Virus record (IMG/VR): IMGVR_UViG_3300032219_002227
Coordinates: 32,001-96,000 of that record
Direction: 5' to 3' (one strand)
Source: a virus
Taxonomy: Duplodnaviria; Caudoviricetes
DNA: 64,000 bases
Within the stretch, counting starts at the first letter, position 1. Every line of letters starts with the position of its first letter. A program made the translations under genes and the position numbers. This document shows positions 2,749 through 32,145 of the stretch, piece after piece. The notes beneath the pieces were generated by a model. That model made no database searches. It saw only the letters and a list, made by a program, of their open reading frames with translations, and had not been told where the DNA came from.

Positions 2749-4294
2749 AGTATTAATAACAACAAGCGGATTAGGAAGTAGATTAGGTAACTTAACTGAC
2801 TATACTAATAAGGCTTTAATAAGAGTAGCAGATAAACCTGCTATTTCTTATATTATAGAATCATATCCATCTGATATTGAATTTGTAATAACATTAGGTC
2901 ATTTTGGATCTCATGTAAAGCAATTTTTAGAATTAGCATATCCAAATCATAAATTCACCTTTGTAGAAATAGATAAATATAAAGGTGAAGGTAGTAGTCT
3001 AGGTTATTCTATACTACAATGTAAACACAAAATCAATTGTCCTTTTATATTCCATGCCTCAGATACAATTGTAAAAGATTTTAAAACACCAAATTTAAAC
3101 ACTAACTGGGTAGCAGGTAATTATAAAGAAGATTCATCTCAATATAGAACTCTTAATCTTAGTGATGGTAAACTAATTAAAATAAATGAAAAAGGAGAAT
3201 TGGGACATTATTTTTCATACATTGGACTAGCAGGTATAAAAGATTTTGAATTATTCTTTTACAATTTAGAAAAATTAGTATATGGTGATTATAAAGATAT
3301 TTCTGATGTACATGCTATAAATAATATGTTATCTGAAGTGGATTTTTATTATAAAGAAGTTAATTATGGTAAATGGTTTGATATAGGAAATACTTCTGAA
3401 TTAGTTAAAACTAGAAAGAAATTTAGTTCAAGTATAGATGTTTTAGATAAGAAAGATGAATCAATATTTTTCTTTGATGATTTTGTAATTAAATTTTTCT
3501 ATGACAAAAATATTAGTAAAAATAGAGTTATACGAGCTAATAATTTAAAAGGATTAGTTCCTGAGATTATAGGTTCAACTGAAAATTTTTACAAATATAA
3601 AAAAGCAGAAGGTAAATTATTTTCTAAATCTGTAAATAGAAATAAGTTTATAAATTTTCTAGATTGGGCTCAAAATAATCTTTGGATTAATAAAGAAGAT
3701 ACTGATTTTAAATCTAAATGTTACGACTTCTATATTACTAAAACTAAAAAACGCATCCAACAATATCTAAATAACACCCCAGATAAAGCAGAGTATATAA
3801 ATGGAGAAAAAATTCCATCATTAGATGAAATGTTAAACCAAATAGATATTGACTGGTTATGCAATGGTCTTCCATCTCAGTTTCATGGTGATTTTATTTT
3901 GGACAATATAATAGAAACAAAAGACGGATTTAAATTAATAGATTGGAGACAAGATTTTGCAGGTGATTTAGAAGTAGGAGATGTTTATTATGATTTAGCT
4001 AAATTAAATCATAATCTAGCTATTAATCATGATATAGTAAATAAGAATTTATTTAATCATTCAAAGAAGGATTGTTATATTTTAATAAACAGTAAATTAA
4101 ATGAATGTAAAGGAGTATTATATAATTTTATACAAGAAAATGGATATGATCTTGTAAAAGTAAAAATTCTTACATCTATTATCTGGATTAATATGGCTCC
4201 CTTACATGAATACCCATTTAATGACTTTTTATTCAGCTTTGGAAAATACAATTTACATAAAAATTTAAAATTATGGAACCAAAATACTTTATAG
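2735..4294 (+). CDS. Nucleotidyltransferase fused to APH/choline-kinase-like phosphotransferase
   Basis: N-term SGLGSRL..LT...NK and WFDIGN; C-term HGDFILDNI and LIDWR kinase motifs. Confidence 0.85.
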   Translation: MGDYKVLITTSGLGSRLGNLTDYTNKALIRVADKPAISYIIESYPSDIEFVITLGHFGSHVKQFLELAYPNHKFTFVEIDKYKGEGSSLGYSILQCKHKINCPFIFHASDTIVKDFKTPNLNTNWVAGNYKEDSSQYRTLNLSDGKLIKINEKGELGHYFSYIGLAGIKDFELFFYNLEKLVYGDYKDISDVHAINNMLSEVDFYYKEVNYGKWFDIGNTSELVKTRKKFSSSIDVLDKKDESIFFFDDFVIKFFYDKNISKNRVIRANNLKGLVPEIIGSTENFYKYKKAEGKLFSKSVNRNKFINFLDWAQNNLWINKEDTDFKSKCYDFYITKTKKRIQQYLNNTPDKAEYINGEKIPSLDEMLNQIDIDWLCNGLPSQFHGDFILDNIIETKDGFKLIDWRQDFAGDLEVGDVYYDLAKLNHNLAINHDIVNKNLFNHSKKDCYILINSKLNECKGVLYNFIQENGYDLVKVKILTSIIWINMAPLHEYPFNDFLFSFGKYNLHKNLKLWNQNTL

Positions 4295-20160: not shown

Positions 20161-20700
20161 ATGCCAAAATTACGTCGACTTAAAGCAGATCCACTTAATA
20201 GAATCATCACAGTAGGATATATCGATGCAGATTCAATCAACGATATCATCCAACTTATATATGAAATTAACGAAGAAGACGTTAAAAAAACGCAAGTAGA
20301 ACCGATAAAATTAATAATTAATTCACCTGGCGGAGAAGTATATAGCGGTTTAGCTTTAATTGATGTAATTGATAATTCATTAACCCCTATATATACAGTA
20401 TGTCATGGTGCTGCAATGTCGATGGGATTAATAGTATACGCTGCTGGACATAGTAGAATAGCAAGTAAATACGCTACATTTATGTATCATGAATCGCATT
20501 ATGAAATAAATGGAAAAGTAACTACTCATAAACAAGAAATAAAAGAAACAAATCGTACTGAAAAAATATGTGATGACTATTTACTTTCTAAAACAAAACT
20601 TACTCTAGCTGTATTAAAAAAAGTTAAAAGTAAACAGGAAGAATGGTATTTTGATGTAAATACTGCTAAAAAATATGGACTAGTAGACGAAATTATTTAA
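20161..20700 (+). CDS. clpP: ClpP-family protease subunit
   Basis: INSPGG.V, AAMSMG (catalytic Ser), FMYH (His), A.KYGLVD. Confidence 0.9.
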   Translation: MPKLRRLKADPLNRIITVGYIDADSINDIIQLIYEINEEDVKKTQVEPIKLIINSPGGEVYSGLALIDVIDNSLTPIYTVCHGAAMSMGLIVYAAGHSRIASKYATFMYHESHYEINGKVTTHKQEIKETNRTEKICDDYLLSKTKLTLAVLKKVKSKQEEWYFDVNTAKKYGLVDEII

Positions 20701-23111: not shown

Positions 23112-23201
23112 AATAAATTGTTTTTAGTTAAAAATAATTAGATCACATATAAATATTAAGAAAAATTAGGAGAATGCAAAAAAATATAATATATTTAAAA
23201 T

Positions 23202-23399
23202 ATGATATTAACAATATATATTATTTCGGTTATTTACTGTGTATACAAGATGTATACTTTATATAGAAAAAACAATAACCCCTTATATTCATCTCCAGGG
23301 TTAGACACTTTAGCTATTATAGTTATGGCTCCGGTACTAATGGCTGTAGATGTATCTATGACTTGGATTAGATTGTATAAAGAAAGAAAACAACAGTAA
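23202..23399 (+). CDS. Small membrane protein
   Basis: Two hydrophobic segments. Confidence 0.55.
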   Translation: MILTIYIISVIYCVYKMYTLYRKNNNPLYSSPGLDTLAIIVMAPVLMAVDVSMTWIRLYKERKQQ

Positions 23400-23400
23400 T

Positions 23401-23559
23401 TGTCAGGTGGTGAAAAGTGTGCACACACTGGTATACACACCCACTCGTCTCGTGGGCGCTGAAAACGAAACAGGTATTTAGGTATGGGTTGACCACAAAG
23501 CCGGCTTAATTTGCCAAATACTAAATCGCAGCGTGAAGGTTCGACTCCTTCCCTGACAG
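23401..23559 (+). ncRNA. Enlarged tRNA-like RNA (class II layout, non-canonical anticodon loop)
   Basis: Acceptor TGTCAGG/CCTGACA; T-arm GAAGG-TTCGACT-CCTTC; CCCAC-TCGTCTC-GTGGG arm; CGCTG/CAGCG variable stem enclosing a large insert. Confidence 0.7.
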
Positions 23560-23564
23560 CCTGA

Positions 23565-23800
23565 ACACAGTGAAGTCTAAAAAATTAGTCCGCAGGCCAC
23601 GGGATCGAAAACTCAGGAATGCCTCTTAACAATGCACAAATCTCCTCTAAATCGTTAGTTAGCGGTGTAAAGTAACTCCACTGGAGAATAGAGTTACAAA
23701 TAAGGTTGATTGGGATAGGGTTGCAGGGTAATGCCTGACCTGATAGGATAGTAACGCCAATCATAAAAGCAGATGTCCACGCACCCATCTTCTGCTTTCC
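23565..23800 (+). ncRNA. Unclassified structured RNA candidate A
   Basis: GC-richer non-coding spacer with stems GTAACTC/GAGTTAC, TGATTGG/CCAATCA, AAAGCAGA/TCTGCTTT. Confidence 0.5.
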
Positions 23801-23805
23801 TAAAT

Positions 23806-23892
23806 GCCCTTGTGGTGGAATAGGTAGACACGCAGGACTTAAAATCCTGTTCGCTGAAAAAGCGAGTGCGGGTTCGATTCCCGCTGGGGGCA
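23806..23892 (+). tRNA. tRNA-Leu(TAA)
   Basis: D-loop GGTAGAC; anticodon arm CAGGA-CTTAAAA-TCCTG; long variable arm; GCGGG-TTCGATT-CCCGC; acceptor stem has three G-U pairs; CCA not encoded. Confidence 0.9.
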
Positions 23893-23893
23893 C

Positions 23894-24544: not shown

Positions 24545-24929
24545 GGGGATAACCGGTATCGATCCGGATGTAGAGGTAATACTACATGCAGGCATTTGAG
24601 TATACTGCCTTAGAAGATACTAAACAATAAACGCTGAAGAATTATCTTCATTCACTTTCGAAGATGCAATGTCTTTCGTTGGTGCTGATTACGCAGTAGC
24701 TGCCTAATCAAACACGGGTAAGTAACCTAGGAACAGAACTACTTTGAGTATTCACGATCGACTCATTAAATAAGGACTGTGGATTAGTTTCTTGATGTCA
24801 TAAATCAAGTGGTGGAAACGACCATAACGGTCAGCCCTACTGATCAGATTCGTTCAGATCTAAGCATGTGAGACGTTAGTATTATTGTCTCTTTCGGAGA
24901 CGTGGGTTCGAATCCCACTATCTCCACCA
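24545..24929 (+). ncRNA. ssrA: tmRNA
   Basis: GGGGATA/TATCTCC acceptor with G3-U70, T-arm GTGGG-TTCGAAT-CCCAC, encoded ACCA end; ATAAAC then tag ORF 24633-24707 AEELSSFTFEDAMSFVGADYAVAA*. Confidence 0.95.
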
Positions 24930-24936
24930 AAACAAA

Positions 24937-25218
24937 ATGTGGCCGAATAAATTCTTGAGAGGGATTAAGGCACTGGCTAGATAGCTGAAAAGCTATTGAG
25001 TTGGGTTTCACAGACAGATGAGTTAAAACCACCAACATTAAGGGTAGAATGCGCAACCCGAAAGTGCTCTGGATACGCCGAAGATAAATCATGACGATCT
25101 CCGCAGGCGTTGTTAGTAATCAATCTAACTAGTCTTAACACTTAGACTGATCATCTTTGTGGACTATGGGTGAAAAGGGGTCTGTCCAAGGATTATGGGT
25201 AATCGTTACTCCCATCAA
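24937..25218 (+). ncRNA. Unclassified structured RNA candidate B
   Basis: About 280 nt non-coding, GC-richer, multi-stem (TAGCT-GAAA-AGCTA; ACGCC/GGCGT; CACAGACAGATGA/TCATCTTTGTG; TGGAC/GTCCA; ATGGG/CCCAT), followed by a terminator. Confidence 0.6.
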
Positions 25219-25223
25219 TTTAT

Positions 25224-25253
25224 AGGCAACCAGAAATGGTTGCCTTTTTTTTT
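25224..25253 (+). terminator. Rho-independent terminator
   Basis: AGGCAACCA-GAAA-TGGTTGCCT + T run. Confidence 0.9.
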
Positions 25254-31515: not shown

Positions 31516-32145
31516 ATGAAATACCTACTTACACTACTTATGCTTATTAGCATAGCGTTTGCTCAAGACACAATTACAATTGTACATAAAGCGTACAAGA
31601 CAACTTATAGTAAATCCAAAAACTACCCTGTTAAGGTAGAATGGTGGTTAACTAAAGCAATGGTAAGTTGTCCTACTAAAATAAAGCGAACAGATAATTT
31701 TGGACCTGATCCAAAACAAATAGCAAGTACCAACTTGCAGCAATATTATAATAACTCCGGTTACGATCGTGGTCATAATTTTCCTGCTGCAGATGGTGCT
31801 TGTGATGTTATTAGTATGACTGAGTCGTTTTATTTTTCAAATATGACTCCTCAAACACCTCAATTGAATAGGGGTGATTGGAAAATGGTTGAGGAATTAA
31901 CTCGTATAGAAGCACTACAAGATGATTCAGTACACGTTTGGGCTGGATCTGTAGGTGAAATAAAAAAAATAGGTAAAATGGCCATACCTAAACAATGCTG
32001 GAAAGTAATTTATGTTAAGAAAACAAATGAATGGTTCGCATTTTTATTCAATAATGATAATACTAGAGCAAACGGTATTAATGATAATAAAGTTGAAGTA
32101 AAATTGATTGAGCAAATCACAGGTTTTAAATTTAAAGCTAAATAA
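31516..32145 (+). CDS. Secreted-type DNA/RNA non-specific endonuclease
   Basis: Signal peptide MKYLLTLLMLISIAFA; YDRGH, SNMTPQ...LNRG.W..VE. Confidence 0.9.
   Translation: MKYLLTLLMLISIAFAQDTITIVHKAYKTTYSKSKNYPVKVEWWLTKAMVSCPTKIKRTDNFGPDPKQIASTNLQQYYNNSGYDRGHNFPAADGACDVISMTESFYFSNMTPQTPQLNRGDWKMVEELTRIEALQDDSVHVWAGSVGEIKKIGKMAIPKQCWKVIYVKKTNEWFAFLFNNDNTRANGINDNKVEVKLIEQITGFKFKAK

Follow-up and report, generated by a model that had tools for sequence, protein, structure and literature searches.

A giant-arm GUC tRNA-like RNA family in Bacteroidota-like bacteria and their phages

We analyzed a tRNA-like RNA gene at positions 23401-23559 (+ strand) of a 64,000-nucleotide (nt) stretch of Caudoviricetes phage DNA (IMG/VR record IMGVR_UViG_3300032219_002227, record positions 32,001 to 96,000; hereafter, the window). 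Among described RNAs, the class II tRNAs (tRNA-Leu, tRNA-Ser and tRNA-Tyr; Rfam family RF00005) share with it the 7/5 acceptor/T branch, an extra helix between the anticodon and T arms, the nucleotides U8, G9, A14, G18 G19, U54 U55 C56 and A58, and placement in tRNA arrays; tRNA-Leu also has the same 3-bp D stem with a 13:22 mismatch. However, the extra arm of class II tRNAs is ~13-21 nt, whereas that of the giant-arm RNA is 78 nt, branched, and accompanied by a D-loop hairpin. Also unlike class II tRNAs, the giant-arm RNA has the anticodon GUC (that of Asp, whose tRNA is usually of class I shape), U37, often C33, G73 and U1:A72. From canonical tRNA-Asp it retains the cloverleaf with a 7-bp acceptor stem, a 5-bp T stem and the tertiary nucleotides, but it lacks U33 and a purine at position 37.

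Allo-tRNAs are likewise non-canonical and long-armed, come from metagenomes and phages, and have GUC among their commonest anticodons (PMC5389517); roles suggested for them are missense suppression or a regulatory function (Mukai et al. 2017, PMC5389517). However, allo-tRNAs need an 8/4 or 9/3 branch (PMC5389517), whereas the giant-arm RNA has a covarying 7/5 branch and an arm several times longer. The tRNA-Asn of the ND-AspRS/GatCAB transamidosome likewise combines U1:A72 and G73 and has a GUN anticodon recognized by enzymes of the aspartyl-tRNA synthetase (AspRS) type, but its anticodon is GUU rather than GUC, it has neither giant arm nor D-loop insert, and the phage has no GatCAB. Transfer-messenger RNA (tmRNA) has a tag frame and no anticodon arm, whereas the giant-arm RNA has a covarying anticodon arm, with no match to RF00023 at its site.

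In kind, the nearest analogue is the T4 species 1 and 2 RNAs (rnaC and rnaD), a pair of stable RNAs of 119-139 nt encoded right after tRNAs, with a tRNA-like T arm in rnaC; to our knowledge, the function of both is still unexplained. They are not homologous to the giant-arm RNA, as the model R1 described below gives rnaC 15 bits, like ordinary tRNAs, and they have no GUC loop or GACCAC arm. Natural homodimers joined by palindromic pairing, such as HYER1/5 (also the OLE, ROOL and GOLLD assemblies), resemble the giant-arm RNA in that their self-complementary sequences vary between members yet stay palindromic, but they are not tRNA-shaped, and dimers of the giant-arm RNA are suggested by sequence only. 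Both ROOL and GOLLD have phage links, too, and are located close to tRNA genes. Our literature search turned up no paper in which a tRNA-like RNA bearing such an arm is clearly described from Bacteroidota or from phages that infect them. A candidate RNA reported by Fremin et al. 2023 (PMC10690425), DNAVirus_1850, with 27 IMG/VR hits, one of them overlapping a tRNA-Asp call, may belong to the giant-arm family. The family is of the tRNA-derived kind, absent from Rfam and apparently unpublished.

Structure and covariation of the RNA gene

We conclude with high confidence that 23401-23559 is a real RNA gene of a giant-arm GUC tRNA-like family. The window RNA consists of a full tRNA body with two additions, a D-loop insert and the branched variable arm. 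The parts are as follows, where R1 is a model that we built from phage copies only.

23401-23559 (+): tRNA-like RNA gene, tRNA positions 1 to 73 (R1 171 bits, E 1.8e-41)
23401-23407 (+): 5' strand of the acceptor stem, U1 G2 U3 C4 A5 G6 G7, forming 7 bp with 23552-23558
23408-23439 (+): D arm of class II type, with U8 G9, A14 A15, G18 G19 (23430-23431) and A26
23436-23438 (+): C-A-C, pairing with G10-U11-G12 in the 3-bp D stem inside the D arm
23416-23429 (+): D-loop hairpin insert, 14 nt, holding the 10-nt perfect palindrome GUGUGCACAC (23417-23426)
23440-23456 (+): anticodon-like arm CCCAC / UCGUCUC / GUGGG, 5-bp stem (5/5 pairs covary) and 7-nt loop
23457-23534 (+): branched variable arm, 78 nt, with U48 at 23534
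23485-23496 (+): conserved apical strand UGGGUUGACCAC at the variable-arm apex
23498-23507 (+): apical perfect palindrome AAGCCGGCUU, following the apical strand
23535-23551 (+): T arm GAAGG / UUCGACU / CCUUC, 100% paired, with 4/5 pairs covarying
23552-23560 (+): 3' strand of the acceptor stem, discriminator G73 (23559) and encoded C74 (23560)

When 95 sequences were fitted to R1, 98.6% of cells were paired, compared with 41-48% in slid controls, in which partners were shifted by 1-3 columns. Both sides changed in 34 of the 41 pairs, and none of 500 shuffles attained any observed measure. The acceptor stem was paired in 100% of cells, with covariation in 6 of its 7 pairs, and the D-stem pair 11:24 changed from U:A to C:G in 25 sequences. 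The helices of the variable arm run from P1 (GCUG/CAGC) through P2 (CGA/UCG), P3 (GGUAUU/AAUACU) and P4 (GGUA/UGCC) to the apex, with an internal loop AACA/AAA; as helices 4-7 of the fitted alignment, they were 95-99.7% paired, with both-side changes in 15 of 17 pairs. RNAalifold analysis of 49 relatives predicted 41 pairs, 25 of them with compensatory changes. Among aligned relatives, the tertiary-contact nucleotides of the D arm and U54 U55 C56 A58 of the T loop are invariant. Pairs of the G-U type are confined to the + strand reading, which indicates that the constraint acts on RNA of that strand. The single-sequence fold beats shuffles by a small margin (z = -2.14); the main support for the structure is this comparative evidence.

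A preliminary description of this DNA, made from the letters alone, had reported the perfect 7-bp acceptor stem and T arm, a CGCUG/CAGCG variable stem enclosing a GUAUUU-A-GGUA / UGCC-AAAUAC stem, and a 7-nt loop UCGUCUC without U33 or a purine at 37; each of these is present, the inner stems reading GGUAUUU-A-GGUA / UGCC-AAAUACU and the loop U32 C33 G34 U35 C36 U37 C38, and the loop indeed appears poorly suited to normal decoding. The same description had placed a GUGUG-CA-CACAC hairpin in the D loop. The insert exists, but a 2-nt loop is infeasible, so a 3-bp stem with a UGCA loop or a self-complementary 10-mer is the better reading. Its argument against decay was borne out by the 98.6% pairing, the compensatory changes in 34/41 pairs and at least 160 distinct intact members, and decay of an old tRNA is excluded.

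Standard tools pass over the gene. In the window, ARAGORN and Rfam together identified tRNA-Leu (23806-23893) and tmRNA (24545-24929) alone. Without introns, ARAGORN made no call at the tRNA-like RNA; with its intron option, it called a tRNA with a forced 78-nt intron, a product that lacks U33 and ignores the true anticodon-type arm. A search of Rfam 15 at the site gave no family match, RF00005 included, even at E≤10. These checks and homolog covariation had been named in the preliminary description; they returned no known family and strong covariation.

Family members, fixed nucleotides and palindromic tips

Nine related contigs with the element at 70-84% identity were reached via a neighboring protein. 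The 19-nt arm core GGGTTGACCACAAAGCCGG occurs exactly in 57 IMG/VR contigs, 55 of which hold genuine full elements, and a degenerate 5'-half pattern identified at least 119 IMG/VR stretches; from IMG/VR we parsed 94 distinct phage members of 114-176 nt. The window RNA has the family signature throughout: U1:A72, G73-C74, a class II D arm, a YYGUCU(C/A) loop and, in the variable arm, a YGA...UCR base and a GACCAC apex. The apical GACCAC is found in 90/94 viral members and also in long chromosomal forms.

Other searches returned few or no members. An exact T-arm plus acceptor search of IMG/VR gave 0 matches, and in blastn against cultured phages tRNA-Leu was the sole match. R1 identified no member in Flavobacterium phage immuto, Microcystis phage Mel-JY01 or LR756508, and no cultured carrier is known to us. 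Among 185,579 species genomes, the arm core has a single true member, on a 518-bp scrap of a metagenome-assembled genome. Chromosomal relatives, whose core has diverged, were reached by the 5'-half pattern.

Used without the D-loop insert, this pattern matched at least 120 metagenome stretches with 69 distinct members of 88-172 nt, in which the loop is mostly UUGUCUC, U1 is present in 65/69 and G73 in 69/69. Although R1 was built from phage copies, these chromosomal members score 75-97 bits, compared with 15-32 for ordinary tRNAs. Many belong to contigs 100-943 kb in length, where two genes often stand in tandem, one encoding a short form whose arm tip is of GNRA type and the other a long form with UAUGGGUUGACCAC plus AAAUUAAUUU; in the long forms, AAAUUAAUUU occupies the site of the apical palindrome. 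An Lrp/AsnC-family regulator, whose nearest Atlas clusters are mostly Bacteroidota, is located 141-208 nt upstream, always divergent, in 23 of the 48 loci with enough flank. The family is thus common to Bacteroidota-like bacteria and their phages, and the occurrence of relatives on contigs of up to 943 kb indicates that the phage carries a copy of a host-type RNA. At one locus (L179, 5539-8021, - strand), genes for an RtcB RNA ligase and an RlaP-type RNA-repair nucleotidyltransferase lie just past the AsnC-type regulator that flanks the tandem genes; as these neighbors occur in one locus only, they may be there by chance.

The phage contig L135 carries two adjoining members on the - strand (3961-4271), 157 nt and 147 nt long; the second has an AU-rich hairpin in place of the arm apex. 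Also on this contig (5274-5435, - strand) is a more distantly related tRNA-like element, 162 nt long, which starts with AGUCAGG.

Nucleotide conservation in the family is uneven. U1:A72 is present in 95/95 sequences, and among viral members G73 occurs in 93/94, C74 in 94/94 and G2 in 92/94. For members picked solely by their arm core, the loop consensus is N-C-G-U-C-U-(C/A); GUC is invariant among them, and one has U33. In the 94-member set, U37 is found in 94/94, positions 34-37 there being fixed by the search pattern itself; positions 32-33 read UC, CU, CC or UU, C33 occurs in 69/94, and position 38 is C in 80 members and A in 14. U33 is what the ribosome requires for the U-turn. The constant nucleotides G73, G34, U35, C36, C38 and G2:C71 correspond to the bacterial tRNA-Asp identity set, which comprises G73, G34 U35 C36, C38, G2:C71 and G1:C72 (PMC9976931); all are present save G1:C72, replaced by U1:A72 in 95/95. 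Based on these nucleotides, the RNA is probably charged by the host AspRS. For tRNA-Asn, U1:A72 promotes amidation of Asp by bacterial GatCAB, whereas G1:C72 of tRNA-Asp blocks it, and supernumerary D-loop nucleotides are a GatCAB antideterminant (PMC1635274); the 14-nt D-loop insert of the window RNA is placed elsewhere than U20A.

Genomic placement also resembles that of tRNAs. An ordinary tRNA ends ≤40 nt upstream in 19/94 members and starts ≤40 nt downstream in 19/94, and many members lie between tRNAs without a nearby open reading frame (ORF). C74 is encoded in 351 of 377 ordinary tRNAs of the same loci (93%), as it is in the tRNA-like RNA, whose 3' trailer continues mostly with A, as in neighboring tRNAs. 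In ordinary tRNAs of related phages, C74 is usually followed by A, not by the rest of CCA, a 3' trailer convention that is unusual and common to them. A canonical tRNA-Asp (GUC, A37; loop CUGUCAC) stands alongside the RNA in 14 loci with near-complete tRNA sets. We also considered an origin from the phages' own tRNA-Asp or tRNA-Asn and rejected it, as the body is no closer to those than to other tRNAs.

The tips of both additions are palindromic. In 50/94 members, a perfect palindrome of ≥8 nt is present in the D-loop insert, where the longest palindrome averages 6.3 nt versus 3.6 nt in shuffles; relatives have GCGUACGC, GUAGCUAC, GGAUAUAUCC and GCUCUAGAGC, among others, at the same site. After GACCAC, an 8-10-nt perfect palindrome follows in 87/90 members (mean 9.0 nt versus 4.5 nt in shuffles), with at least 13 different sequences, including AGCCGGCU, GCUUGCAAGC, GCUAGCUAGC, GCUCGAGC, GCUGCAGC, AGCGCGCU and AGCAUGCU. 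By chance, a central tetramer is self-complementary 1 time in 16; at the arm tips, at least 7 different tetramers comply. A plain hairpin does not need self-complementarity in its central four nucleotides, so the pattern fits selection for a symmetric duplex between copies. Palindromic pairing is a documented route to homodimers of natural RNAs (PMC12990946), and palindromic tips of such varied sequence suggest self-pairing of two copies.

Other pairings were considered and rejected. A pseudoknot of GACCAC with G7-U11 is contradicted by changes of U11 to C together with its D-stem partner while ACCAC stays unchanged. The apical GGUU/AGCC helix of RNAalifold is unsupported in the GGGGUAGACCACC subfamily, where a palindromic hairpin or duplex is preferred, and pairing of the anticodon GUC with the apex GAC amounts to just 3-4 bp, the chance level. 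The possible trans target GUGGUCAA showed no enrichment within the window.

The phage and its RNA island

The window comes from a phage genome that is complete at 173,246 bp, has terminal repeats and encodes one tRNA (tRNA-Leu), one tmRNA and one copy of the tRNA-like RNA; an R1 search also found the latter to be single-copy in the 173-kb phage. Its proteins include DUF4494, ClpP and a baseplate protein with 45% identity to its counterpart in Flavobacterium phage immuto, and the nearest isolate is a Flavobacterium phage. Based on DUF4494 and the immuto-like baseplate protein, a Bacteroidota host is likely. In the phage genome we found no AspRS, GatB, asparagine synthetase, Ro60, CCA-adding enzyme, TGT, RtcB or Rnl2-type ligase; because these enzymes are not phage-encoded, any partner of the RNA would be a host protein.

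The gene sits in an RNA island on the coding strand. In order, the island comprises an AT-rich promoter-like region, a gene for a 65-aa membrane protein, the tRNA-like RNA, a 245-nt non-coding stretch, tRNA-Leu, two small ORFs, tmRNA, a ~290-nt non-coding stretch and a terminator (25224-25245). No terminator was found between the promoter region near 23190 and 25224. The gene adjoining the RNA is:

23202-23399 (+): 65-aa two-helix membrane protein gene, with its stop codon 1 nt before the RNA

A homolog of this membrane protein is encoded directly upstream in 51/51 loci of the window RNA's subfamily, and in 26 of the 29 cases checked for its motif, the RNA begins 0-8 nt after the upstream stop codon; at locus L084, the membrane protein gene is present without the RNA. 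The protein had no match in Pfam or PHROG. Members of its family are 65-85 aa long with the motif ...APVLAxVDxSxTWIR...KEAEEA, and the ~80 homologs apparently all come from metagenome-type sources, with 0 in cultured phages. A cut by RNase P would leave the membrane protein mRNA ending very near its stop codon and might thereby expose it to the phage tmRNA.

The 245-nt non-coding stretch (23560-23805, +) recurs whole or as modules in 66 related loci at 68-89% identity, the distant L085 included. Against Rfam it matched no family, its sole hit being a sub-threshold abiF motif (23615-23646; 30.5 bits, gathering threshold 37). The ~290-nt stretch (24930-25223, +), which has no Rfam match, recurs at 75-96% identity in 17 related loci; some of these have it upstream of the tRNA-like RNA instead. 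The phage tmRNA (24545-24929, +) encodes an unusually long 24-residue tag, AEELSSFTFEDAMSFVGADYAVAA, and a ClpP gene (20161-20700) and genes for two small UVR-motif proteins lie within 5 kb of it.

A tentative role and its alternatives

We tentatively favor, at somewhat below even confidence, a reading in which the RNA is matured and probably aspartylated like a tRNA and uses its arms to act outside the normal decoding cycle. It would be excised from the operon transcript as a tRNA is, by host RNase P, 3' trimming and CCA addition. The host AspRS would then charge it, the nucleotides read by that enzyme being fixed (C38 mostly) and the U33 needed by the ribosome being free to vary. It would take no part in bulk decoding, given a pyrimidine rather than a purine at 37, the C33 of most phage copies, the ~25-bp arm, the D-loop hairpin and the normal tRNA-Asp alongside. 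The phage copy would add to the supply of a host RNA with a role away from the ribosome, much as phage tRNAs and tmRNA supplement their host counterparts; this seems likelier than an anti-host weapon because the host gene adjoins a metabolic-type regulator. The giant arm and the D-loop hairpin would serve as handles, with palindromic tips that may pair two copies symmetrically and suit a two-fold symmetric partner. In its most specific form, which we regard as doubtful, the aspartylated, non-decoding RNA would represent a new class of tRNA-derived molecule, form symmetric homodimers or larger arrays via its palindromic tips and act as a dedicated aminoacyl carrier or platform for a host pathway that an Lrp/AsnC-type regulator governs in bacteria and that phages boost during infection.

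Several observations weigh against the favored reading. Chromosomal members mostly keep the canonical U33, and the short ones (88-112 nt) are within the range of a large but usable tRNA. In the 22-tRNA array of one related phage, the sole normal-sized tRNA-Asp(GUC) (L009/L010, 1795-1869), with the loop CUGUCUA, resembles the giant RNA in having U37 and A38, so that U37 is not in itself a bar to decoding. AspRS, a class II enzyme, comes in from the side of the variable loop, so the arm could get in the way of charging. Predicted two-copy co-folding gives only a slight gain (-13.6 kcal/mol versus -10.2 kcal/mol for ordinary tRNAs), a difference so small that thermodynamics alone does not show dimers. 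Finally, the G1:C72 pair that U1:A72 replaces is strictly conserved in bacterial tRNA-Asp (PMC9976931).

One alternative, which we consider possible though not probable, is an odd but working Asp decoder: the RNA would be an extra isoacceptor in which the ribosome tolerates U37, C33 and the arms, and these changes might protect it from a host nuclease or toxin directed at tRNA-Asp. The full tRNA core, the GUC anticodon, G73 and placement in tRNA arrays are all consistent with decoding, as are the U37 of the tRNA-Asp in L009 and the U33 mostly kept by chromosomal members, and phage tRNAs whose loop changes evade anticodon nucleases are on record (PMC10264068). However, where the tRNA set of a phage is full, it already includes a canonical tRNA-Asp, and it would be odd for the window phage to keep tRNA-Leu and this RNA alone for the sake of a common codon family. 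Moreover, the near-universal U33 is replaced by C33 in 69/94 members, the 78-nt arm is ~3-4 times as long as natural elongator tRNA arms, and the most conserved part, the arm apex, is needless for decoding. An asparagine carrier shares the aspartate identity set with the favored reading and would exploit U1:A72, the GatCAB-promoting pair (PMC1635274) fixed in 95/95: AspRS would load Asp, GatCAB would amidate it, and the loop and arm would bar the product from Asp codons, with the phage copy boosting Asn supply for an AT-rich, Asn-rich proteome. Chromosomal copies do adjoin a divergent Lrp/AsnC-family regulator, but "AsnC" is a mere family name here; the phage lacks genes for GatB, AspRS and asparagine synthetase, and the 10-25-nt D-loop insert of phage copies sits poorly with the GatCAB antideterminant. 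We consider this version unlikely.

The preliminary description had proposed a tRNA mimic. A conserved, structured, tRNA-shaped RNA is what we observed, whereas the specific roles it named fared less well. As a look-alike of tRNA-Asp, a decoy or sponge would bind and neutralize a host factor directed at tRNAs with GUN anticodons, for instance a defense-system anticodon nuclease, or would titrate AspRS. A CGUC/UGUC loop held fixed while decoding features are lost, the sub-threshold abiF-motif match 55 nt downstream and the well-documented tRNA-targeting defenses and phage tRNA counter-measures agree with this, but no tRNA-Asp-specific nuclease is known in these hosts, and an anti-defense decoy would not be expected in bacterial chromosomes, often in tandem, beside a metabolic-type Lrp/AsnC regulator; its chances are slim. 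A cis-acting punctuation mark or stabilizer, in which an RNase P 5' cut sets the mRNA 3' end and the fold frees or shields neighboring RNAs, would explain the stop codon 0-8 nt before the RNA in 26/29 cases and the single operon with the structured tRNA-Leu and tmRNA. Any tRNA would serve that purpose, however, and the loop and arm apex are far more conserved than punctuation requires. The GUC-U37 loop, the palindromes, the stand-alone chromosomal copies and the many members between tRNAs without a nearby ORF would be left unexplained, so that a processing signal alone is improbable. A Y-RNA-like scaffold is contradicted by the lack of a YrlA (RF02553) match, the absence of a Ro60/TROVE gene from the phage and termini that form an acceptor stem. 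We give almost no credence to an intron-interrupted tRNA or decaying pseudo-tRNA: although the ARAGORN intron option does call a tRNA with a 78-nt intron, the forced splice produces U33-less loops and a stem with a G-U pair, and it takes no account of the covarying anticodon-like arm. The inserts themselves covary and include the most conserved part, the arm apex; there is no Rfam group I match, and the phage has no RtcB or Rnl2-type ligase. The at least 160 distinct intact members speak against decay.

Non-decoding tRNA-shaped RNAs are few (tmRNA, Y RNAs, viral tRNA-like ends and cell-wall tRNAs), and each opened new biology. More than 100 distinct members of the giant-arm family, in phages and chromosomes, escape tRNA finders and Rfam, and recognizing them would better the annotation of phage "RNA islands." At about twice the size of a tRNA, the RNA keeps the nucleotides that AspRS reads and the first pair that GatCAB reads. 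Phages that have shed almost all tRNAs retain it, so it probably matters for infection, and an understanding of its role could uncover a new use of an aminoacyl-RNA away from the ribosome or a new type of RNA-RNA assembly.

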